Below are positions 3,508 to 31,134 of a stretch of DNA of 32,000 nt, in pieces; positions within the stretch are counted from its first letter, which is position 1; the number at the start of each line of letters is the position of its first letter. This DNA is from an uncultured archaeon (lineage in GTDB: Archaea > Asgardarchaeota > Lokiarchaeia > Sigyniarchaeales > Promethearchaeaceae). Both the position numbers and the translations under genes were made by a program. The stretch spans positions 45,867 to 77,866 of the forward strand of contig CAYRPF010000005.1 of the NCBI GenBank assembly GCA_964426185.1, given 5' to 3'. The notes beneath the pieces were generated by a model, which made no database searches, was not told the DNA's origin, and worked only from the letters and a program-made list of their open reading frames with translations.

Positions 3508-3780
3508 TCATTCTGCTGCTAGAATATCTGCTGCTGTTATACGCTTTCGTTTTTCTGCTTTTACTATTTTCAAAGCATCTTTTGTAACCTTTGTTCCCAA
3601 TTTTTCTAGTTGCTCAATTAACATGCTCACAGCATCTTCGGCAACTAATTTCGCTCCTTCGGCCTTCATTAGACGTCGCATGGGGGCTTTGGCAATATGT
3701 CCTCCGCTTTTTACTGCGGGTTTTTTCTTTGCAGCCGCTTTCTTTTTCGGCTTAACTTTTGTTGCTCTTTTTTTAGCCAT
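3508..3780 (-). CDS. Archaeal histone with Lys-rich N-terminal tail (90 aa)
   Basis: The histone fold IAKAPMRRLMKAEGAKLVAEDA...KRKRITAADI aligns to HMf-type histones. It is preceded by MAKKRATKVKPKKKAAAKKKPAVK. ATG 3780 has an upstream GTGA RBS-like motif. Confidence 0.92.
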   Translation of the reverse strand: MAKKRATKVKPKKKAAAKKKPAVKSGGHIAKAPMRRLMKAEGAKLVAEDAVSMLIEQLEKLGTKVTKDALKIVKAEKRKRITAADILAAE

Positions 3781-5982: not shown

Positions 5983-8900
5983 ATGTTCTTGAATGTATTC
6001 CAATTAACAGATTTTCTTCTCAATAATTTAAATTCCTTTCTTATCGGTTTAAATACTCTAATCGGTATCATTATTTTTATTCGGATGATGGCTCATTCAA
6101 GGCAAGAATTAAAAACAGCCCCTCGTTATAACATTTTTCAGAAAGCCAGTAATTTTTTCGGAGCATTTTCTTACTCATTAATGGTTTCATTAACCGTGGT
6201 TTTTATCATTGCGTTGATATCTTCAATGATTGCTGTCAATGCACTTTATTATATCAATAATTTCAGAAGGGAATTCGCCAACTATAATCAGCTAATTGCC
6301 ACTTTTCAATATCCCGTATTTCTTCCTACTATTCTTGTGTTAATGGCAGCATTTGCTGTATTTTATTCTCTTTTAGAATATCTTTTAATGGCCCAGCCCT
6401 CTCAGGATGCTCCAATGGAGATTCAACGATGGATTGAAAAAACATTTATCGATCGATTTCGTCCTCCTTGGAGTTATCTTGTAGCCTTTATTATATTTGT
6501 GGTAATTGTTTTGCTTGCTCCATTTATTACAGCTCGATTATCTCTTCAGCTTTGGACCAATTTTCCTCCTAATGCAAAAATATGGTTAATTATCTTGATT
6601 TTTATGAGTTGGATTATGTTGGGACCAATTTTTTATCTTTCTTACTATTCCCAAATTGGAATTGTTCAAGCATATTTCCGTGGGCGTAAAATCAACAAGA
6701 AGAAAGATAAAAAAGGTGCCTTTTTCTACTACATTGCACTTTTAGGGATTTTCATGACAGTTTATTCTTTCATTAAAATCCTAATATTAATTTTTGATGC
6801 TCGACCTGACACTGCATTAAATCCATTAGATGCACAAGGTGATTTTTGGCCCATTATTTTTAAATTTATTAAGGAAAGAAGTGGATTGTTAACTCAAGAG
6901 CAAATACAAGCAATTCTTGCATTTTTTGCTATTTTTCCGCTTGGTTTTTCCAGTTTCATCTTAACAACTATTATTTTTGGTTTGGTTGGATTTTACGCCA
7001 AGTTTCTCAGTAAAGAACCGTTAAATACCCCAAAAATGATACTTTTCGCCGCTTACATCATTACGGGTATTGCATTTTCAATTTTCATTAATACAATTGT
7101 CAATTTTCCCTATACATTTCCTACACAGTTTCTAAATTCAATTGGATTTCCTCTAACTACCAGAAACATAAATGATCAAATATTGCTGTTAAGGATTTTT
7201 GCAATTCCCTTATTGATGGAAAAAACTATTAATCTAATATTTTTGATCAATTTCTTGTTTTTAAACAAATCTCTCAAACAACAGATGGAAAAACTTGTCT
7301 TAAATCAAGCTATAACTAACGAGGATTTTGAAATTTTTCAAAAATATCTTAATCATAGGGATCCTTCCATACGTTTGAAGTTATTCATTCATTTGGTTGA
7401 TTACATTAATCTTGATCCCACAATGACCGATCAAGCTAGAGATCAATTATCAAATATTTTTGAACGCTTTATTTTTGATGAAGATCCGAATATAAATCAG
7501 ATGTTTATAGAGAATTCGGCAAAAATTACCGACCTTTTTACTTTATCAAGCCAGTTAAACTTGTGTTATCGGTTGATTGCTAAGGAATCTCCACAATCAA
7601 TCAATATGGGCTTTAATTTACTAAAAATAGCATTACCATATTCACAAAATCTGTCAGACGATGAAAACACACAAATTTTCAAAGTTATGAAGAAAATTGT
7701 CTTAAAAAGTTACAACCCTCAAATAAACAATTCATTTACTGAATTTTTGAGTAACTTTCGCCGTAGTTTTCCAATACTTACTCGGAAATTAATCATCTCA
7801 TTTATTCAAGCAACTCCCCGCTTTGAAATATTGCTTGGGTTAAATTTTATTTCACAATTTCCAAAATTTGTTCAATCAGACAAAGATATCATCATTTTAT
7901 CCATTCAAAATCAATTAAAGAAAATGGATTTAGAAATTATTAAAAATGCTTTACATGCATATATTCGATTTGCGTTAGTTGAAACTTCTTTAATCCCTCA
8001 AATAATGACAGAATTTAATCAAATTACCTTAAATGAAGAGCCCATTATACAAGAAAAAATAGGTGGTATTGTACAGTTTAATTTAATTCATCCAGAATGG
8101 TTTGAGCAGTTTTTTGAGTATCTTCGTATTTACCTTGAAGATTCAAATATTTCAATCAAATCTGATGCATTAATCGCTTGTGGAACTTTAGCTTCACCAG
8201 TAAATGAGTTTCAATTCTTTAATTCTATCTATCCTTATTTTCTTCAAAATATTCAATCAGAAACAATAGAAATTCGAAAAGCCGTGATATCTTCACTTAT
8301 TGTCATTGCTCAAACTCGTCCTGATATATACAATGACCCAAGGTTTCACAAATTGTTCACTTTTCTCATCGTTGATCCTCGTTCAGAAATTCGACATCAA
8401 GTATATCGATTTTTCATCGATGGAGATCCAGAATATATTGTTCGTGATATAGCAAATTTGTTAGAAACTCCCATAAGTATAGGTGTGCGTGTTGATCTCC
8501 TTAATATTTTATCTCAAATTGTACCATCTGTTATACCTTATGTAGATGATATCGATCTTTACCGTATATTGATGGAACAGCCTTTCTCAAATCAAGAAAA
8601 TGAAGTAAATATGTCTGTAATTCAAGAATTGCAGGAAGATAAAACATCTTTGTTTGGATTTCGGAATTTTCAATCTTCGTTTAATCTCTATGACTCAATT
8701 GTTGCGTTAATGTATGATTTAACATACTACATTCCAGAAAAATATCATATCCTCGTTGATTTTTATCAAAAACATCAAAAATTGGAAAATGATTTCAGTC
8801 TTGCCAAGAAAATAGAATTTTACTCTAAGATTATATATGAAGAATTAAGCCTAACCAGAACGGTAGGAATTACTTTTACTTTGGTAAATTTAATTGAGCT

Positions 8901-10416
8901 TATCCATCAATCTTTCTCGAAAATCCAATATCATTCTACACATATTATTATTCAATATATCTCAAAACTTCTTAAAGTTGCCCCAGGTTTTCATAAAGAA
9001 TTGTTTGATATTGGTTATAACTTAATTTCGTTCAAATCTTACATGTCTGATTCGGACAAAGGGACCTTACTCGTCTTTTTTACGGAAATTATTACTCATT
9101 CAAGGGGAAATTATATTCAGCCAATTACCATTCCAATTTTCTTAAAATCCAAACAAATAACATTAAATCCGTTCGAAAAGGTTCTAAAACCCTTTCTACT
9201 CTTCTGCATGAAAAATTCTCACAAACAGATGGAAAATTTCATTATGGAATCATTACAGAAAATGATGACTGATTTTTCTGATATATCAAAAATTCAAGAT
9301 TTTCTGGTTCATATCATTCACCATTCTCATGATTCCGAAGTAAAAATATCCGCAATGAAATTTTTCACTTCACTCCCAATTGAAATTAAAAATAGGAAAA
9401 ATATTTTATTAATTTTGAACCAATTACGTTCTAAAGATGACAATGTAAAAGCCCAAGCTATAGAATCCATAGGAATCATTCTGCGCGCCTTTCCGACTGT
9501 AAACCCTGATGAAAAAGGGCCATATAGTTCATATGCTAAAGTTATTCGAGATCTTTTATATAATGCTTTTTATAGTTCTTACAGTATAACTGCTCCGATT
9601 CAAATTCGCGCAACAATTATAGCCCATTTAAAAACCATATTATTGATCCAACCTCATTTTCCAGTTTCTTTGAAAATTCTCGATCAACTCTCTCAAGAAC
9701 CAGATGAGGTGCTGGCTATTCAAGCAGTTTCACTACTATTTGATTTTGTTGATTTCCATAAGGAAAAACTTAGTGAAGAATTGGTAATTCTGCATCATTA
9801 TTCTAATTCCCCATTTGCTTCAGTGCAAAAGATCATGAGTGAACGTATCGCAGGATTATTTAATGAGAAAGTACATTTGAATGTATTATTTCCCATTATT
9901 TTCAATTTAACTACAAGCGATTTCCCTGAAATTCGTCAAATGGTATTTAACACCATATTTTTACTGTTTAATCAAGAACCTACTTTACTACCGCAATTTT
10001 TCTATAACCTACAAAAATTAACGAAACAAGTTAACTATGAAATTCGATATGATTCTTTTGAGCTATTGACTAAAATTGTTAATATACTTTCTTTATCAGA
10101 AGATTTGATTGGAAAATTTAATGAAACACTTCTTAGATTATCCATGGATCCCGAAATGGGAATAAAGATCTTCATTTCTCAGAATTTAGTTCATTTAATT
10201 CATCGATATCCTCAACATAGTTCCGAGTATTTACATATTATTTCGGATTTTATCAGGTTAAATAATTCGGAGATTGTAAAAAATATTATACCCGCTTGTA
10301 AAGCGGTTATTCAAGTAAACCAAGAATTCAAGCCTATATTAGAAAAACGGATTAAAAAGGTGTTTAAGAAAACCCAAAATCCGTTTATCGATACGTTGCT
10401 AAAGGAAATTTCTTAG
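5983..10416 (+). CDS. Large protein with polytopic membrane N-terminus and HEAT/ARM-like alpha-solenoid C-terminus (1477 aa)
   Basis: About 10 hydrophobic segments lie in aa 1-430. HEAT-like units follow (LEDSNISIKSDALIACG, SETIEIRKAVISSL, DPRSEIRHQV, SKDDNVKAQAIESIG, SDFPEIRQMV, DPEMGIKIFI). Confidence 0.75.
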   Translation: MFLNVFQLTDFLLNNLNSFLIGLNTLIGIIIFIRMMAHSRQELKTAPRYNIFQKASNFFGAFSYSLMVSLTVVFIIALISSMIAVNALYYINNFRREFANYNQLIATFQYPVFLPTILVLMAAFAVFYSLLEYLLMAQPSQDAPMEIQRWIEKTFIDRFRPPWSYLVAFIIFVVIVLLAPFITARLSLQLWTNFPPNAKIWLIILIFMSWIMLGPIFYLSYYSQIGIVQAYFRGRKINKKKDKKGAFFYYIALLGIFMTVYSFIKILILIFDARPDTALNPLDAQGDFWPIIFKFIKERSGLLTQEQIQAILAFFAIFPLGFSSFILTTIIFGLVGFYAKFLSKEPLNTPKMILFAAYIITGIAFSIFINTIVNFPYTFPTQFLNSIGFPLTTRNINDQILLLRIFAIPLLMEKTINLIFLINFLFLNKSLKQQMEKLVLNQAITNEDFEIFQKYLNHRDPSIRLKLFIHLVDYINLDPTMTDQARDQLSNIFERFIFDEDPNINQMFIENSAKITDLFTLSSQLNLCYRLIAKESPQSINMGFNLLKIALPYSQNLSDDENTQIFKVMKKIVLKSYNPQINNSFTEFLSNFRRSFPILTRKLIISFIQATPRFEILLGLNFISQFPKFVQSDKDIIILSIQNQLKKMDLEIIKNALHAYIRFALVETSLIPQIMTEFNQITLNEEPIIQEKIGGIVQFNLIHPEWFEQFFEYLRIYLEDSNISIKSDALIACGTLASPVNEFQFFNSIYPYFLQNIQSETIEIRKAVISSLIVIAQTRPDIYNDPRFHKLFTFLIVDPRSEIRHQVYRFFIDGDPEYIVRDIANLLETPISIGVRVDLLNILSQIVPSVIPYVDDIDLYRILMEQPFSNQENEVNMSVIQELQEDKTSLFGFRNFQSSFNLYDSIVALMYDLTYYIPEKYHILVDFYQKHQKLENDFSLAKKIEFYSKIIYEELSLTRTVGITFTLVNLIELIHQSFSKIQYHSTHIIIQYISKLLKVAPGFHKELFDIGYNLISFKSYMSDSDKGTLLVFFTEIITHSRGNYIQPITIPIFLKSKQITLNPFEKVLKPFLLFCMKNSHKQMENFIMESLQKMMTDFSDISKIQDFLVHIIHHSHDSEVKISAMKFFTSLPIEIKNRKNILLILNQLRSKDDNVKAQAIESIGIILRAFPTVNPDEKGPYSSYAKVIRDLLYNAFYSSYSITAPIQIRATIIAHLKTILLIQPHFPVSLKILDQLSQEPDEVLAIQAVSLLFDFVDFHKEKLSEELVILHHYSNSPFASVQKIMSERIAGLFNEKVHLNVLFPIIFNLTTSDFPEIRQMVFNTIFLLFNQEPTLLPQFFYNLQKLTKQVNYEIRYDSFELLTKIVNILSLSEDLIGKFNETLLRLSMDPEMGIKIFISQNLVHLIHRYPQHSSEYLHIISDFIRLNNSEIVKNIIPACKAVIQVNQEFKPILEKRIKKVFKKTQNPFIDTLLKEIS

Positions 10417-10430
10417 AAATTACATAATAC

Positions 10431-12527
10431 TTAGGAAAAATCTGCGAAAAATAATTTTTTAATTGAATCTAAGATATTTTCTAGAAATTCTTTTGTAATA
10501 TCTTTTGCTTCAGAAATTTTTTCGATTTCATTTGAGAAAATAACACTTAGTTTATCACGATCATAGAAGAAAACATTCAAATTTTCAGGAAATACCAAAG
10601 TAAACAAGAAATAAGCTTGACCTTTTGTCCTTTTTTCTTTTTGAGTATAATCTTTAATTGTTTGAGTATAAATTAAAGCAAATGTCTTAGGATCAGTAAA
10701 TAATAAAGGACCAAATAAACCTTGATGGTAGAGTTGACCTTGGCCGAGTGCAATAGAATACAAACTGCCAACTCTTAAAACATTCGCTTGAATGATTGGA
10801 TCCGATAAATCTAAACGAGTACTCTCTTGTATCATAGGACCTAGGCGTTCATCAATTTTAAAGACAATCATGGCGATTTCATTTAAATAATTTATTGAGA
10901 TTACGGATTCTCTAAAGGAATATAAAGGATCTCTTAATATATTGATCATTCGCTTAAATAGATAGCCTTCTATACTGGAGGAGATGGATTTTGCTGATGG
11001 TTTTGTTTCTATTAGGTTATGAATTTCCTCGCATAAGTGGATATGATATTCAAATGAAAGTTTTTTGGATATTTCAAAAGCGTTTTGTAATTTTTCTAAT
11101 GCCTTTTTGGGTGTTTCTAAGGCTATAAAAGATAAAGCCAAAATTTCATAAAGTAGCATTTGGAAGATGTGTTGATTTTTCTTTTTGGCAAGATCTAAAG
11201 ACTTAAGTGCTAAATTTTGTATATTTTGAATTATTTTTTGTTTGGTTTCTGGTTGATTTCGACTAAAATTTGAGTATTGCAGGAGATAATTACGAATTGA
11301 AAGAAAATTGAAAATGTTTTGGAAAAGTGTTTTATTCTTTCTTTGTGCGAGATTAGAACCCTCGCTCAGAAGAAATTCTGCTTCAAAGAAATTCTGATGT
11401 TCTATCGCTTTATTTGCTCTAAATTGCAAAATTTGCATTTGAATTTGCTTTAAATCGTATTTTTTAGCGAATTTGTCTGCTAATTTAAGATGAGAATAAG
11501 CTTGTCTTGTCTCACCAAGTTGATCTTCAATATTCGCTAAGAGAATTAGAATTTCTGCATGTTGAATAAAACCTTCAGTATCTTCAATAATAGAAATTGC
11601 TTTAATTAATAAATCCTTTGATTTTAAAAATTGAGATTTTAATTCCCAAAATTTAGCAAAAAATAACAATGCTTGTGCATACCTGACTGGATCTTCTAAT
11701 TCTTGATATAACGATATTGCTTGATCTAATATTTTGTTAGCTTCAATAATTCTACCTAATTGTAATAAAATATTCGCTTGCCCAACGTATAAATATGCTC
11801 GAGATCTACGATCTTCAATTTTTTGTGCCAATTCAATTCCTTTTTGAAAAACTTGCAATGCAGTATCATATTCTCCCATTATTTCTTTGGATTCTGCAAT
11901 ATTATGTAAAATCAAGCATTGCCATTTATGTAAATCGTTTTCTTCTGCTATTTGAAGAGCTTTTTCAAAATTCTGAAGGGCTAATTCATTATCACCATTT
12001 TCCCTTAGAATTAATGCCATATTTGAGATCAATTGTATTTTTAATTGATAATTTCCTGTAAGATCCAGAGATTCTACTAAAGATAGGTATTTTAATGCTT
12101 CAGAATTTTTATTTTGGTGATAGTAAATTGCCCCCAAAATCATCCCAGTTCTGGCGGCTTTTACGTGTAATCCCAGTTTTTGAAAAATTTCTAAGGCTTT
12201 TCTTGCTCTAATTTCGGATTTTTTGAATTCTCCCATTTCCATTTCGATTAAAGAGATTCCACGTAAAGACTCTCCTTTGAATTCCAAATGATATTTTTTT
12301 ATGGAGTAATCATATAACTCAAAATAATATTTTCTTGCTTCAGAGAACTTCGATTGGTAAAAACAAGCAGATCCAAGCATATTTAAAATTTGAAACCTTT
12401 CTGCTTCTTCTTTTGCTATATTTAATAATTCATTTAACTCTTGCTCAGCTTCACGAGGGTGTTTCATAATTTCTTGCTCTAACTCGTCTAATCGAGATAG
12501 TATCTCTGATTTTGAATCCAGTCTCAT
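10431..12527 (-). CDS. TPR-repeat protein with C-terminal longin/uDENN-like domain
   Basis: Many TPR-like units (LNMLGSACFYQSKFSEARKYY, ISNMALILRENGDNELALQNFEKALQIA). The C-terminal ~150 aa begin IAMIVFKIDERLGPMI. Confidence 0.8.
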   Translation of the reverse strand: MRLDSKSEILSRLDELEQEIMKHPREAEQELNELLNIAKEEAERFQILNMLGSACFYQSKFSEARKYYFELYDYSIKKYHLEFKGESLRGISLIEMEMGEFKKSEIRARKALEIFQKLGLHVKAARTGMILGAIYYHQNKNSEALKYLSLVESLDLTGNYQLKIQLISNMALILRENGDNELALQNFEKALQIAEENDLHKWQCLILHNIAESKEIMGEYDTALQVFQKGIELAQKIEDRRSRAYLYVGQANILLQLGRIIEANKILDQAISLYQELEDPVRYAQALLFFAKFWELKSQFLKSKDLLIKAISIIEDTEGFIQHAEILILLANIEDQLGETRQAYSHLKLADKFAKKYDLKQIQMQILQFRANKAIEHQNFFEAEFLLSEGSNLAQRKNKTLFQNIFNFLSIRNYLLQYSNFSRNQPETKQKIIQNIQNLALKSLDLAKKKNQHIFQMLLYEILALSFIALETPKKALEKLQNAFEISKKLSFEYHIHLCEEIHNLIETKPSAKSISSSIEGYLFKRMINILRDPLYSFRESVISINYLNEIAMIVFKIDERLGPMIQESTRLDLSDPIIQANVLRVGSLYSIALGQGQLYHQGLFGPLLFTDPKTFALIYTQTIKDYTQKEKRTKGQAYFLFTLVFPENLNVFFYDRDKLSVIFSNEIEKISEAKDITKEFLENILDSIKKLFFADFS

Positions 12528-22211: not shown

Positions 22212-23279
22212 ATGAATATTCAAATTAAATCCCCGAATCCAGATGATATTTGGGACCTTTGGAAGCGACAAAATGCAAAATCGCAGAATCTTGAAAAACA
22301 TTATAAAATTAAAGGCTCCACATTCAACTTGGATAATATAACCTCCTCAGAATATGTAAAAGATGTCGAAAAAGGTGCGATTTTACTTTATTTACGAACA
22401 GAAAAATCGTTGCCCGAAGATGCAAAACCGAAAGTGAGGCAAATTTCTCCCAAAAAAGTTACTAAAGAAAGTTTTTATGATTTTAGGACTTCTCCCACCA
22501 AAAAGAATTGGAAAGGAGACAATGTCGTGCCATTCCTTAACACACTTAAACCTGTTAAGTGTCCTTCATGTGAAGGTTCTGGAAAAGTACAATGTTCTAA
22601 ATGCAAAGGACAGCGTTTTGTAGTTTGCACAAATTGTGGTGGTAAAGAGAAAAAGTGCAAAAAGTGTAATGGAACAGGGAAATTGAGTGAAACGATAACT
22701 GTAATTAACGAAAAAGGTGAAAAAATAAAGAAAGAAATCGTTTTTCAATGTAATGAATGTTTTGGCTCTGGCAGCGTGACATGTAAAAAGTGCGGGGGCA
22801 CTGGTAAAATTTTATGTACGTATTGTGATGGAACAGGCGTTTATCGTTGTGATAAATGTGACGGCTATGGAATCACGTACCAATATGAGATTAAACCAGT
22901 TCCTTTTAAATATGATTCGCAAACGGAGCCGATGCTATTTAGTTCTATTAAATTATCTGGATTAGAATCTCAAATTGGCAGAGATATTCAACAAGCATTG
23001 GATCAAGTTGAAGGGATTTTAATTCGCCACCCAGAAAAAGAGCTTAATAAAAAATTTATTGAACCTTCATTGGGATATATTTCCAAAGAAATTCAGAAAA
23101 TTGCGAAAAACGTGAAAAAAGAGTGGGAATCCGCCCAAAGAAGTTCAAATTTGTCTATTTCACTTCCAATTTATTTATTTCCTGTTCTTATTTTGAAATG
23201 TGAAACCAAGAAAGGCAGAAGTTTTCAAGTTTTTGCCATTGGTTCGGAAAAGAAATATCGTGTGTACGGTAAAATCTAA
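22212..23279 (+). CDS. DnaJ-type CxxCxGxG zinc-finger protein without J domain (SSUH2-like)
   Basis: Eight CxxC motifs (CPSCEGSG, CSKCKG, CTNCGG, CKKCNGTG, CNECFGSG, CKKCGGTG, CTYCDGTG, CDKCDGYG); no HPD/J domain. Confidence 0.8.
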   Translation: MNIQIKSPNPDDIWDLWKRQNAKSQNLEKHYKIKGSTFNLDNITSSEYVKDVEKGAILLYLRTEKSLPEDAKPKVRQISPKKVTKESFYDFRTSPTKKNWKGDNVVPFLNTLKPVKCPSCEGSGKVQCSKCKGQRFVVCTNCGGKEKKCKKCNGTGKLSETITVINEKGEKIKKEIVFQCNECFGSGSVTCKKCGGTGKILCTYCDGTGVYRCDKCDGYGITYQYEIKPVPFKYDSQTEPMLFSSIKLSGLESQIGRDIQQALDQVEGILIRHPEKELNKKFIEPSLGYISKEIQKIAKNVKKEWESAQRSSNLSISLPIYLFPVLILKCETKKGRSFQVFAIGSEKKYRVYGKI

Positions 23280-26038: not shown

Positions 26039-27190
26039 TTAAATCCGATTGCGGTATTTATAAATTCCGAAAATGATTAAAGCCACTGTGGCGATACTAC
26101 CAATTACAATCCCTGTAATAGCCCATGGATTTGTTTCTAACTGCCAAATTTCTTCATTCATCAGAGCATTACGGCTGGTGCTGAACGCTTCTGAATCATA
26201 GAGTAAAATGGTACTAACTGCATAGTAGGAAAGCTTCGCAGAAGAGATTAATTCGGCATTTCCACTTGAAACATCAGCAAAACCATAATCGGTTGGATTT
26301 TGTCGGGATAACACCCATGTTAAAGTTTCTTCATGTAAGGGAATGTCCAATAGTGATAAGATGTGAGTGGCAAAATATGTCAACAATAAAGAACTCTGCG
26401 TAATTCCAGTTTGAATACCATATCCACCATAATGTAGGCTTTGTGTAGGGTCTCCAAAATAATAACTCTCTACAAAATCTGAAATACCTTGAATTTGAGT
26501 GGAATTTAATTGATTTAAACTGTTAAGTTCTGATAAAGTAGCCAAAGCATAGTATGTATCAATAATGGTGGCTTCTCCACCAGGTATTGAAGCAAACGCC
26601 GAATTTTCTGCATCCCAAGTACTGAAGACAAAGTTTGCAAGATTGGTTGGTGAAGTTTCATTAATTTTTCCAAAAGTAGTTAAGAGTTTCACAGCAAAAT
26701 AAGTGTCGGGAATGTTTGCTTCGGTGGCTTCTGCACTTGCGAATCCATTGGTGGTATCATTCTGCAGTTCAAATAATTTCGTGGTTGCATCTTCGATCAT
26801 AGTGGAAGTGAAATTTGTATCCAGCAAAATTCCTCCAAAATAAGCATAATATGCTTGTGTTATTATACCACTGCCTACATCAGAGAACTGTAAGTAACGA
26901 TCACGAAGATAACTGCGAATAATTCCTTGGTCGTTCAAATTTGTCAGTTCAGAATCGATTTGCGCTAAAATAAACAAATTTGCGTAGGTGGTAAATTCTG
27001 AAAGAAGTCCTTCATCTTCCACATTTCCAGTGGGAGTATCTAAAAACGCTCCTGAGGAATGTTGGTTGCTAAGGCAAAATTGTTCCAATAATTCCTTTCG
27101 ATTGGCTGCAGCGGCATTTTGCACCGAAAGAAAAAGGGCGAGCGTAATGGAAATTGTTATTAAGAGGGTTAATTTATTACGACGTTTCAT
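26039..27190 (-). CDS. Secreted, C-terminally membrane-anchored prenyltransferase/squalene-cyclase-like repeat (alpha/alpha barrel) protein
   Basis: Signal peptide MKRRNKLTLLITISITLALFLSVQNAAA; repeats Q..G(G/A)F...TY(F/Y)A; C-terminal TM plus KYRNRI. Alternative start at 27208. Confidence 0.78.
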   Translation of the reverse strand: MKRRNKLTLLITISITLALFLSVQNAAAANRKELLEQFCLSNQHSSGAFLDTPTGNVEDEGLLSEFTTYANLFILAQIDSELTNLNDQGIIRSYLRDRYLQFSDVGSGIITQAYYAYFGGILLDTNFTSTMIEDATTKLFELQNDTTNGFASAEATEANIPDTYFAVKLLTTFGKINETSPTNLANFVFSTWDAENSAFASIPGGEATIIDTYYALATLSELNSLNQLNSTQIQGISDFVESYYFGDPTQSLHYGGYGIQTGITQSSLLLTYFATHILSLLDIPLHEETLTWVLSRQNPTDYGFADVSSGNAELISSAKLSYYAVSTILLYDSEAFSTSRNALMNEEIWQLETNPWAITGIVIGSIATVALIIFGIYKYRNRI

Positions 27191-27314
27191 TTTTCCGAAA
27201 CCTTTCATTTTCTTATAGATTTGTTCCTTAAAATTATAGATATATTTTAAAAAGTGTGGTATTAACCGTTGAAAATGAAGAAAAATCCCTCTATTTAGAG
27301 GTTAAATACCGTAA

Positions 27315-28928
27315 TTATTGAAATACTTTACTGAAATCGATTAAACAACTATTCGGATTTTCGGTAAATTTTTCATAAGATACCATGAATTTCCGAAATG
27401 ATGGTATTGCTCCCAAGATAGATGCTCCACGATAAGAAGCATATATTCGATTTGGTGGAAGAATAACATTTACGATTAGATCATCCTTGTGTTTTTTCTC
27501 AAATTCTTCGTCGAGTTGAACCAGCTCTTCTAACTCTTCACTATCATACTCGGATTCAATTTCATCGCTAATTTTCGCTAATTCTTTTTCATCCCCAGCA
27601 ACTTGTTTAATTAAACGTTTTTCCTTTCTATCCAATTTATCTTCGATAATGATAGACTCTAATTTAGCACCGCAGTGATTGCAAAATGGAGATTCTCCAT
27701 CCAATGTCCCGCCACATTCCGGACATTTGATGGGATACTGTTGTTTGGCTGCTCCAATAATATCAATTTGTTGCACAAACACATTTCTTAAATCTGCCCC
27801 ACAGAACGGGCAAAATTCGCTCTCTTCAAAATTAATAACTTCTCCACATTTGGGACAGTTTCCTTCTTTAGTCTGTCTTCTTCCATCAAGTTGGACCATT
27901 TTATGGGAATCTTCTTGGAACGGAATTTCTTCTGGTTGAGGCTCTTCTTCTGGTTTTTCCTTTGGAATTCTCGCTTTTAATTCATCGAGGGATAAATTTA
28001 GTTCTTGAATAAGTCGTTCTTTAAACCCGGAAATTAAAGATGTTCCCCCCGTTAATACTATATTCTGCAATAATGGCTTAATATAATAGGGATTTATCAG
28101 TGTCAACGAATTAATTATCGCTTGGGCAATATTTTCCGCTTGGGGAAGAATTAGTTGAGGATTAAATAACACTTCGGCAGCATTGATGATTATATATTCG
28201 CTGATATGAAGTTTTTCTCCATCGGGTAGAAGATAATCAACTGCATTAACTGTATCTTGGCCTGCATGAACCGGATCCAAGCTAATCTTTAGACATTTTT
28301 CTTTAATATCCTTCAGAATTTCACGTTTTTGAAATATACCATATTGAGTGAGAAGTTGATTGAGGTATTCTTCGATATCTGCTCCAGCGATATTTAAACG
28401 ACGAATGCTGGGATTGTATAATTGAGCTTCCATTACGGGAGTGATTGAAGTAATTCCAGTACCTACTTCCACTGATAAAGCCGTGGTTAAGCCAATTGAA
28501 AAAACCGCGGTAGTCGCAGAATCTATTACGGCTACCTTTTGAAAACGATGGGTTTCAAATAGCACACGAGCAAAATATTCTGCGATATCAGGTGGTGTAA
28601 GCGGAGGGACGATATAAATCACATTATACTGAGATGGATCAGTTATTCGGAGAATATTATAGAATATATGGTTCAAAATGGCGTAGTAATGGTCCCAATT
28701 GGTGACAGTGCCTCGGTGGATGGGATATTCCAATTTTAAAACTCCCCGCATCCGAGTAGTATCATCTCCCACATAGATCTCCTGTGCTTGAGTTCCTGCC
28801 ATCTGCCGGTATTTGGGGATCCCTACTACTGTTGGAAAGACCGCCCTCGGTTTATCTTCCCCTACAAAACCCACTTTAGTATACCCTTCACCAATGTCAA
28901 GAATAATAGTATATTCGTTGTAGCTCAT
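27315..28928 (-). CDS. Actin-related protein with inserted double zinc ribbons
   Basis: Colinear with actin: ILDIGEGYTKVGFVGEDKPRAVFPTVVG, YVGD, LEYPIHRGTVTNWD, YLLPDG, EVLFNP, NIVLTGGTS, PPNRIYASYRGASILG. The insertion contains CPKCG/CPFCG and CPECG/CNHCG. Confidence 0.93.
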   Translation of the reverse strand: MSYNEYTIILDIGEGYTKVGFVGEDKPRAVFPTVVGIPKYRQMAGTQAQEIYVGDDTTRMRGVLKLEYPIHRGTVTNWDHYYAILNHIFYNILRITDPSQYNVIYIVPPLTPPDIAEYFARVLFETHRFQKVAVIDSATTAVFSIGLTTALSVEVGTGITSITPVMEAQLYNPSIRRLNIAGADIEEYLNQLLTQYGIFQKREILKDIKEKCLKISLDPVHAGQDTVNAVDYLLPDGEKLHISEYIIINAAEVLFNPQLILPQAENIAQAIINSLTLINPYYIKPLLQNIVLTGGTSLISGFKERLIQELNLSLDELKARIPKEKPEEEPQPEEIPFQEDSHKMVQLDGRRQTKEGNCPKCGEVINFEESEFCPFCGADLRNVFVQQIDIIGAAKQQYPIKCPECGGTLDGESPFCNHCGAKLESIIIEDKLDRKEKRLIKQVAGDEKELAKISDEIESEYDSEELEELVQLDEEFEKKHKDDLIVNVILPPNRIYASYRGASILGAIPSFRKFMVSYEKFTENPNSCLIDFSKVFQ

Positions 28929-29018: not shown

Positions 29019-29459
29019 TCAACCTTTATCTTTTGGTGGTAGTTCTGCTATAAAAGTAGATTTGGCGATTTTTTCATTTTCTTTTTCTAAAAAATTTTCC
29101 ACATCTTTTTTAACTAATTGATATAAATCCAGCAAATTTTGCCCCCATTGAGTTAATTCCACCTTTCCTCCGCCGCCAGAACCACCTTTAGAAGAAATAG
29201 CCACCTTTTTCCCGGTTTTTTTGGAAATCTTCCTCAATTTTTCCCAGCCGTACTTGTAGGAATAGTTTAACTTTTTAACCGCATCGGTAAGATTGTGGGT
29301 TTCGGCTAATGCTTCTAAAAGTTTGAAATCTCCTTTACCAAGTGTTAAATCCCCAGGACCTTTTATCCAAAATTTGGTTTGAAGCGAAAAAGGAACTAAA
29401 TCTGCGAGAATCACGCGATGTTTCTTTTTTGAGTGTTTGTGGGTGGGTATTTCATCCAT
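29019..29459 (-). CDS. ModE-family winged-helix transcriptional regulator (no TOBE domains)
   Basis: LGKGDFKLLEAL...NLTDAVKKLNYSYKYGW...KGGSGGGGKVELT. Start revised to ATG 29459 (or 29468) to avoid a 200-nt overlap with the upstream gene. Confidence 0.85.
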   Translation of the reverse strand: MDEIPTHKHSKKKHRVILADLVPFSLQTKFWIKGPGDLTLGKGDFKLLEALAETHNLTDAVKKLNYSYKYGWEKLRKISKKTGKKVAISSKGGSGGGGKVELTQWGQNLLDLYQLVKKDVENFLEKENEKIAKSTFIAELPPKDKG

Positions 29460-29481
29460 GATTAACATGAGACGGGAGAGA

Positions 29482-30252
29482 TTAAAAATCTTCATTTTTG
29501 GTCGGTGCTGTGGGAGCTGTAGGTAGCAATATTTCAGATAGCATTTTTTGATTTGGGCGAATAAATTTTTTTCCAAATCCCGAAATAGCGGTAATTTCAT
29601 CAGGTGAATTAATAATTGCATCAAAAACAGCCGCAGGCGAATCAAATTTTTCCAGTAACTTAATGGCTTTCTTTTTACCACAATTTAGTAAACCTTTGAT
29701 TAAGTAAATTTGGGCATCAGCTAAAAAAACCCTTTTCTCCGAAATTCGGGATAATTTGGGAGGTAAATCACTTATTTGTTCTCGATGAGCAATTCGTAAC
29801 AAAATTTCAATAGAATCTGCTGTATTCCGTCCGGGAATGAAAATAGGCATGGCGGTATGTTTGGATTTGGAATGCGCTGTGGATATATCTAAAGGGGTAA
29901 AAAATAGGTTGGTGATCAAGAGTTGCCATTTTTTACGGTTGGATTCCCCCCAACGATGAAATCCCTCGGCGATTATAATTCCATAGGGATATTTTTCTAT
30001 AAAATTACGGATATCCGTTATTAACGCTTCTATAGAATTTGATCGTAAATCTTGGCTGTGTAAGTGGTAGGCGGCCCCTTGAGATGGAATAATAAACCAA
30101 TGCTTAGGATACTGGAAGTATAAAATTTCTACTCCAAGATCGATTAGTTGTTGAACTAATTTCATCTGCGGTTTAGATTGATCTTGATTACATTGAATAT
30201 GATACTTGGAATAATCGATATTTGTTGAAGAGTGATGAGAAATATCCGGCAT
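29482..30252 (-). CDS. Catalytically inactive ERCC4-fold + (HhH)2 protein (ERCC1/Eme1-like)
   Basis: Aligns along its length with the adjacent nuclease but lacks GD and ERKxxxD. HhH motifs GLLNCGKKKA and ISGFGKK. ATG 30252 is preferred over 30315. Confidence 0.75.
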   Translation of the reverse strand: MPDISHHSSTNIDYSKYHIQCNQDQSKPQMKLVQQLIDLGVEILYFQYPKHWFIIPSQGAAYHLHSQDLRSNSIEALITDIRNFIEKYPYGIIIAEGFHRWGESNRKKWQLLITNLFFTPLDISTAHSKSKHTAMPIFIPGRNTADSIEILLRIAHREQISDLPPKLSRISEKRVFLADAQIYLIKGLLNCGKKKAIKLLEKFDSPAAVFDAIINSPDEITAISGFGKKFIRPNQKMLSEILLPTAPTAPTKNEDF

Positions 30253-30348
30253 ATTTCGCTTTGAACCCCTTATATTACTTAAGCTTTTAGGGAATAATAA
30301 ATTCCCTCCTCTCATTATATTTTTAATTTTTTGGGAAGCATATCAACC
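30253..30348. promoter_or_regulatory. Short divergent (bidirectional) promoter region
   Basis: 96-nt gap between head-to-head ATGs, with TATA-like TTATATTT (~30315-30322, +) and TAATATAA (~30270-30277, -). Confidence 0.45.
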
Positions 30349-31134
30349 ATGGCAATCCAAATAATTATGGATGAACGGGAACGAGGAGAAATTCGGCAAC
30401 AGATGAAATCTCTACCTGTGGATCTCAAGATTCATACTTTGGATGTTGGAGATTATATTCTCTCTCCCAGAACTGTGGTCGAACGTAAGCGGGGTGATGA
30501 TTTTGTAGCAAGCATTTTTGACCAACGGCTCTTTTTACAGCTGGAAAAGTTGAAAATTTCTTATCCTCACCCCATACTCATTCTAGAGAATCCCAAACGT
30601 ATGTTTGAGCGGAAATTTATAAACACTAAGGCAACATTCGGCGCATTGGTCTATGTTAGCACGCGTTTGGGAATTCCTATCATTCCTACATCTGGAATTG
30701 AACAGACGGCTTCAATTTTATTTGAAATCGCTCGCAGTGAGCAAGAACAACTTCACGAACAAAAACAACAAGCTCAAGAGCAAAAACAAACTCAGCAATA
30801 TGAACAAAATCAAAATGAAGATTGGATTCATCAGACCGCTGCCACTGTGGGAATTTCACGGGGTGATCAAACGTATTTTCTGCAAGGGTTAATCGATGTA
30901 GGCAGCCAACGCGCAGAGCAGCTGTTGGATATGTTTCAAACCCCTGCTAATATTCTATATGCTTTTGATTTAACTGATATAGTTCGCACCAAATTTGGAA
31001 ATCCAAAAGGAATAAGCGGTGTCCTAGCCGAAGTTTCAGGCATAGGGCCTAAAATTGTCGATAGAAATCAAAACTTACTGCATTTTTCATATAAACAAGC
31101 AAAAAAAGAGAAGAAAAGGGTGAAAGTGAATTAG
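30349..31134 (+). CDS. ERCC4-domain structure-specific endonuclease (XPF/Mus81/Hef nuclease type) with (HhH)2
   Basis: IIMDERE, LDVGDYIL and VVERKRGDDFVASIFDQRLF form an intact GD...ERKxxxD site. HhH motifs GLIDVG and VSGIGPK. ATG 30349 is preferred over TTG 30331. Confidence 0.92.
   Translation: MAIQIIMDERERGEIRQQMKSLPVDLKIHTLDVGDYILSPRTVVERKRGDDFVASIFDQRLFLQLEKLKISYPHPILILENPKRMFERKFINTKATFGALVYVSTRLGIPIIPTSGIEQTASILFEIARSEQEQLHEQKQQAQEQKQTQQYEQNQNEDWIHQTAATVGISRGDQTYFLQGLIDVGSQRAEQLLDMFQTPANILYAFDLTDIVRTKFGNPKGISGVLAEVSGIGPKIVDRNQNLLHFSYKQAKKEKKRVKVN

Follow-up and report, generated by a model that had tools for sequence, protein, structure and literature searches.

The closest described relatives of the protein analyzed here come from the two cultured model strains. 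For MK-D1, a 2020 supplement lists DSAG12_03244 as 'actin-related (fused to double zinc ribbon)'; the gene was found to be expressed, with transcripts at 229 RPKM against 501 RPKM for Lokiactin (PMC7015854). In L. ossiferum, UYP44711.1 is one of the three Asgard actin-related proteins (ARPs) that Rodrigues-Oliveira et al. included in their tree, which also holds eukaryotic ARPs, and in their RT-qPCR, which showed Lokiactin transcripts severalfold above those of UYP44711.1 (PMC9834061). The MK-D1 listing describes a fusion, gives no function and does not mention that the ribbons lie inside the actin fold. Among the literature that we searched, the ARP accession is named only in PMC9834061, where the insert is not described, and nothing was found on the internal position of the insert, the lost catalytic residues, the helical module or the function. 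The gene itself is therefore no discovery, since the domain content of its orthologue stands in the 2020 supplement. What is new is the subclade-specific helical module, the asymmetry between the pointed and barbed faces and the evidence that weakens a link to the neighboring gene.

In this paper we looked at a window of 32,000 nucleotides of Lokiarchaeial DNA, which encodes a protein of this kind. DSAG12_03244 is 51% identical to the window ARP over 99% of its length and has the same two ribbons, helical module and gene neighbors, yet the net charge of its helical module is 0, against -11 in the window ARP. UYP44711.1 (499 aa) is ~50% identical, falls in the same subclade and has the helical module, but it carries ribbon 1 only. 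Common to this group and to the window ARP are the position of the ribbon or ribbons, at actin residues 319-327, and a shared gene neighborhood. With Lokiactin (L031 in this genome; solved relative PDB 9wc4, 'HC1 actin') and eukaryotic actin the ARP shares the fold, the pocket glycines, K18 and K213/E214, as well as M44 of the D-loop, R62 and residues 243-245. It is nevertheless only ~35% identical, has lost Q137 and H161 and carries the 166-aa insert, and it is confined to one order whereas Lokiactin is found across the phylum.

A zinc-ribbon ARP group within one order

A profile search of 300 Asgard genomes (75 of the same order and 225 others), in which a full-length member was defined by E <1e-160, found the full-length ARP in 73 of the 75 same-order genomes; the exceptions are G021, which is rated 100% complete, and G009. 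The 225 other genomes gave no ARP, only ordinary actins (E 1e-105 or weaker, profile 5-326) or nothing. The architecture is thus common in the order, besides being already listed for MK-D1, and this lowers the novelty that the first-pass annotation had given to it. As nearly all genomes of the order retain the ARP and the two cultured model strains express it, a capping or anchoring role would be directly testable.

The genome of the window encodes three actin-family genes, which are the zinc-ribbon ARP, a 376-aa Lokiactin and a 373-aa paralogue (L032). In a tree of the actin core, rooted at the midpoint, with long branches flagged and five unlabelled actin-like rows besides, the zinc-ribbon ARPs form a separate clade of 38 rows (100/100), apart from the Lokiactins (own clade, 99/98) and also from the 373-aa paralogue group. 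The window ARP lies in the same 17-row subclade (100/100) as the copies of MK-D1 (L007) and L. ossiferum (L008), and the cluster of its closest relative includes Ca. Harpocratesius repetitus. The order of the ARP branches agrees with the host families and so points to vertical descent of what appears to be a single-copy gene in this order of Lokiarchaeia. It had been proposed from the window alone that this is a specialised ARP distinct from Lokiactin. The separate clade, the genome's own Lokiactin and 373-aa paralogue, the internal module and the lost hydrolysis residues all agree with that proposal, and the protein belongs to the actin family and to the Lokiarchaeial zinc-ribbon ARP group, not to Lokiactin.

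The insert and its parts

The translated gene (Table 1) matches the Pfam Actin model (PF00022) with 241.6 bits against a cut-off of 27 (E 1.5e-71). Solved actins align with it in two blocks, residues 7-311 with actin 7-318 and residues 487 onward with actin 328 onward. Between them, residues 312-486 (175 aa; 27471-27995) stand in place of nine actin residues (319-327), a net gain of 166 aa. The zinc-ribbon models PF13240 and PF13248 and the DZR model PF12773 match above cut-off, with two CxxC knuckles per ribbon, and none of 20,000 shuffled versions of the ARP sequence contained four CxxC motifs. The actin-related protein with a zinc-ribbon insert, as first annotated, is real, and the motifs that had been named are present where they were placed. 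In the AlphaFold model the actin core is confident, with blocks mostly at pLDDT 80-94, whilst the linker (328-352) is disordered and the two ribbons have middling confidence. Foldseek matches of the model are actins only, with a TM score by target of ~0.9, and the D-loop and hydrophobic plug have the length found in actin.

Table 1. Features of the zinc-ribbon ARP gene and of the genes beside it, in positions of the window.
Feature	Residues	Positions	Strand	Remarks
Zinc-ribbon ARP gene, P0001		27315..28928	(-)	537 aa, without internal stop
N-terminal actin core	1-311 (= actin 1-318)	27996..28928	(-)	
Four-residue deletion site in subdomain-4 loop	actin ~199-202	28329..28343	(-)	
Flanking actin motifs		27999-28019 and 27447-27467	(-)	
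AlphaK extension, then Pro/Glu-rich low-confidence linker	312-357	27858..27995	(-)	
C4 zinc ribbon 1	358-376	27801..27857	(-)	four Cys invariant
C4 zinc ribbon 2	402-419	27672..27725	(-)	absent from 13/103 rows, L. ossiferum included
Four CxxC motifs		27843-27857, 27798-27812, 27711-27725, 27669-27683	(-)	
Conserved basic helix, opens the helical module	431-442	27603..27638	(-)	
Two acidic amphipathic predicted helices	447-479	27492..27590	(-)	invariant Glu-Tyr pair
Acidic stretch of the first-pass annotation		27504-27566	(-)	
C-terminal actin core	487-537 (= actin 328 onward)	27318..27470	(-)	
Downstream toroid gene		26039..27208	(-)	signal peptide, alpha/alpha toroid, C-terminal TM helix, short basic tail
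Upstream small helix-turn-helix gene		29019..29681	(-)	real start probably later than listed

In the family alignment of 103 full-length rows, in which some genomes appear twice, 89 rows have two ribbons and 13 have ribbon 1 alone, so that ribbon 1 is kept in every one-ribbon member. Ribbon 2 appears dispensable, since one-ribbon forms are found both at the base of the ARP family tree and nested within it. Both ribbons probably bind zinc. Their mean net charges (-1.0 and +0.4) are neutral to acidic, and the lack of a basic character argues against nucleic-acid binding. The same type of ribbon is found on 15 other open reading frames of the genome, nearly always at a terminus. Predicted transmembrane helices occur in 9 of these 15, against a background of 26%, and the set includes 2TM, TM2 and RDD proteins and many small membrane proteins. 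Among solved structures, the ribbons gave only weak matches, to C2H2, LysW and YacG. Kinship with the zinc domain of a Loki gelsolin (PMC9433394) was considered and rejected, as the knuckle spacing of this genome's gelsolin differs and the ribbon pattern missed it. One of the 15 reading frames encodes a 627-aa Ras-family GTPase (L075, G000:C9:6587-8467) that ends in this type of ribbon.

The ribbons are followed by a module of ~45 residues in which a basic helix leads to an amphipathic acidic helix ending in Glu-Tyr and then to a further acidic helix. AlphaFold predicts three helices here with low confidence (residues 434-479, pLDDT ~55-60). The basic helix has a conserved LKKT-like tetrapeptide, predicted at the helix end, where a WH2/beta-thymosin motif would carry it in an extended strand after an amphipathic helix. 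WH2/thymosin models searched against the module gave no Pfam match at E up to 5, so a reading of the basic helix as WH2/thymosin lacks support from profiles. The module is present in 44 of the 103 rows and absent from 59, including the whole of a large sister family. In the tree the rows that bear it group as a single nested clade (17 of 17 rows, 100/100), to which the orthologues of the cultured strains belong, and a four-residue gap in the 199-202 loop of subdomain 4 is common to all 44. The module and the deletion map to one and the same branch, which gives no evidence of co-evolution. A search of the module profile against 1.84 billion representatives returned seven matches, all of them members of the ARP family or fragments of members, and the profile matched 10 of 14 genomes of the family.

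Of residues 446-477, 16 are acidic and 2 are basic, and the acidic stretch of the first-pass annotation is indeed present. It is not a free tract, however, but half of a basic-then-acidic module that is predicted to be helical. Net charge after the last ribbon ranges from -16 to +3 among the rows that have the module. In the aligned sequences it is the pattern, rather than acidity, that is conserved.

Active site, filament faces and a possible place at the filament end

The ARP keeps D11, G13, K18, G156, G158, K213, E214, G301 and G302, and also M44, R62 and P243-D244-G245, while the window copy carries the substitutions S14E, H73R, Q137S, D154E, D157T and H161S. None of the 103 rows has Q137, the residue at this position being S, T or A, and every row has R in place of H73. 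H161 is retained in just 16 of them; all 14 Lokiactins keep both Q137 and H161. For M44 the count of rows that retain it is 97 of 103. From the enzymology of actin, the retention of the phosphate-loop and ribose residues together with the loss of the hydrolysis residues suggests that the ARP may bind nucleotide without actin-type hydrolysis.

For the filament interfaces (pointed, barbed, cleft and inter-strand) we used site lists that we take to represent the contacts in F-actin models. At the 21 pointed-end long-pitch positions the two ARP subgroups match the Lokiactin consensus with identities of 0.60 and 0.64, against 0.35 and 0.38 overall. Both the p-values of this excess (0.003 and 0.001, or 0.03 and 0.007 without Gly/Pro), which are nominal since the sequences are akin and the alignments were seen beforehand, and the excess itself should be read with the caveat that several retained pointed-end positions also stabilise the fold. 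At the 12 barbed-face subdomain-3 positions identity falls to 0.21 and 0.17, and these are also the least conserved set within the ARP family (0.57-0.58 against 0.70-0.74 overall). Cleft and inter-strand positions are unremarkable in their identity to the Lokiactin consensus, whilst within the family the barbed-end hydrophobic cleft is well conserved (F143, G146, T148, G168 and L346). The 373-aa paralogue group has no pointed-end excess (0.44 against 0.40). This paralogue of the order (L032, G000:C35:27874-28812; L034, L036, L038-L040) has lost Q137, M44 and R62. Its barbed cleft is better preserved than its pointed face, which mirrors the zinc-ribbon ARP, though not significantly.

Attached through its pointed face, a subunit whose barbed face is altered would be expected at a filament's barbed end. 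This is the main ground, a modest one, for the explanation that we prefer, with a probability of about 0.4: the ARP would cap or anchor Lokiactin filaments at their barbed end and would not hydrolyse nucleotide as actin does. Its pointed face, which resembles that of actin (D-loop, R62 and 243-245), would join the barbed end of a Lokiactin filament, and the altered, insert-bearing barbed face of subdomain 3 would offer no normal landing site to the next subunit. The flexibly tethered ribbon or ribbons, together with the helical module in this subclade, would then recruit a partner, probably near the membrane. Lokiactin binding, capping and membrane proximity are each inferred. An accessory-subunit role fits the orthologue transcripts, which are below those of Lokiactin, and the predicted TM helices in 9 of the 15 other ribbon-bearing reading frames, like the non-basic charge of the ribbons, also speak for this reading. 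Against a cap stand the conserved barbed-end hydrophobic cleft, the end of the replaced loop, at actin K326/K328, which points outward in F-actin so that the insert need not clash with a filament, the four residues that this subclade lacks in the pointed-end 199-202 loop and the MK-D1 transcript level, half of that of Lokiactin, which is high for a pure end-cap.

ARPs at a filament end are familiar from Arp11 of dynactin and from Arp2/Arp3. They occupy the pointed end and have a barbed face like that of actin, the mirror image of the pattern in the zinc-ribbon ARP. In Arp11 and Arp3 additional residues follow the motif that precedes the insert here. If the cap reading is true, this would be an archaeal filament-end ARP whose polarity is the reverse of that of Arp2/3 and Arp11 and whose evolution was independent of the eukaryotic ARPs, and a division of labour among actin paralogues would have arisen in archaea too. 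At stake is how the start and end of Lokiactin filaments are controlled in Asgard archaea, where gelsolins and profilins have already been characterised. The wider claim, that Lokiarchaeia have a dedicated barbed-end-capping ARP whose ribbons (and module, in the subclade) tether filament ends to membrane-proximal partners, is more tentative than the cap alone.

Another hypothesis, distinctly less probable though the strongest of the alternatives, is that the ARP forms a slow or static filament of its own or co-polymerises with Lokiactin, its insert facing outward as a built-in side-binding adaptor. A core that folds as actin, a flexibly tethered insert and a pointed face and barbed cleft that are both conserved within the family would suit such a polymer, and so would transcripts at about half the Lokiactin level. 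A polymer fits poorly with barbed-face subdomain-3 positions that are the least conserved, both against Lokiactin and within the family, with inter-strand positions that do not rise above background, and with the loss of Q137.

A further reading takes up the suggestion of the first-pass annotation that the acidic tract could bind basic partners such as histone tails, and makes the ARP a monomeric scaffold outside the cytoskeleton, comparable to the nuclear Arp4/Arp8. We consider this improbable, although part of the comparison holds. Arp4/Arp8 and the ARP have in common the actin fold, large inserts and a degenerate hydrolysis site, and the loss of hydrolysis residues with H73R is found in Arp8, whose large inserts are in the D-loop and hydrophobic plug (PMC3510490). 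The inserts of Arp4/Arp8 thereby block the pointed or filament-facing side, whereas in the ARP the site is another one, and at the corresponding loop Arp4/Arp8 have an insert of at most 5 residues (Arp8) and no zinc ribbons. The number of residues after the preceding motif is 251 in the ARP, against 82 in actin and 82-91 in yeast Arp4, Arp5, Arp6 and Arp7, and from these actin-like lengths the big inserts of the yeast proteins must lie elsewhere. It is on the position of the insert that membership among the nuclear ARPs fails. A monomer would also have no need of the D-loop and R62, both of which are kept.

A basic partner does exist, since the genome encodes eight histone-fold genes, three of them with Lys-rich tails of 24-55 residues. 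According to a 2026 preprint, tailed histones are abundant in Loki strains, tail acetylases are present and the tails were acetylated in vitro (bioRxiv 10.64898/2026.07.02.735847). The acidity of residues 446-477 would suit such a partner, but the module is missing from most rows, its conserved part includes a basic helix and its net charge varies, being 0 in MK-D1, so that acidity is not supported as the functional principle. The window itself contains a histone-fold gene (3508-3780, minus strand) with a 30-residue Lys-rich N-terminal tail.

Neighboring genes and further alternatives

The gene downstream of the ARP encodes a surface-anchored toroid that has its best fold matches in prenyltransferase beta subunits (Z 23-26, 13-18% identity) and ends in a short, basic, conserved tail. 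A reading of it as Ribophorin II, a minority Pfam label, was rejected, as there was no Pfam hit and the best folds are prenyltransferase beta. Of 26 testable loci, which come from four families, 25 have the toroid gene next to the ARP in the same direction, and both genes are missing together from G021 and G009. These observations are what recommends the idea that the ARP is the cytoplasmic half of a trans-membrane link whose insert binds the tail of the toroid protein. We regard such a link as rather doubtful, for several reasons. Distant toroid homologues (L065-L070) occur in several other Asgard families, in lineages without the ARP, and in the loci examined they are mostly beside a thioredoxin-reductase-like gene. 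The helix-turn-helix gene and folD are part of the same old syntenic block as the ARP and toroid genes, and in one of the 26 loci a different gene lies downstream of the ARP. In G021 the helix-turn-helix gene was not found either, so that the joint absence resembles a block deletion or an assembly gap; three congeners of G021 have both ARP and toroid. The conserved neighbor thus appears to reflect old synteny and is not a proven partner. In the promoter and terminator scan the counts were at chance, and a terminator-like hairpin in the gap between the ARP and toroid genes (27288-27301) was not significant.

Arp2 and Arp3 have short inserts in the loop where the ARP carries its own, with ~20 extra residues after the same motif in Arp3, and the genome holds two non-Lokiactin paralogues. 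One could therefore picture a nucleator similar to Arp2/Arp3 whose barbed face templates Lokiactin, possibly together with the 373-aa paralogue. Such a nucleator would need an actin-like barbed face and could dispense with the pointed one, and since the asymmetry of the ARP is the reverse we hold this to be quite unlikely.

That the insert is an artefact of assembly or annotation is an extremely improbable explanation, ruled out by contigs from public DNA runs, one of which may be the source sample, that span, free of joints and indels, both the C-terminal junction (X2, 27343-27906; X1, 27404-27794) and the N-terminal one (X3, 27884-28496; X2, 27910-28466), by ~80 full-length homologues with the same insert and by its presence in the closed genomes of the cultured strains.

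Some other genes of the window can also be described. In a divergent pair (29482-31134), an ERCC4 nuclease gene is joined by one whose only Pfam match is helix-hairpin-helix; most genomes of the family keep this pair next to the ARP block. A protein of 1477 aa (5983-10416, plus strand), matched by HEAT and weakly by Adaptin_N, faces a 698-aa TPR protein (10431-12527, minus strand), and a 355-aa protein (22212-23279, plus strand) has DnaJ-type CxxCxGxG zinc motifs with no J domain hit.
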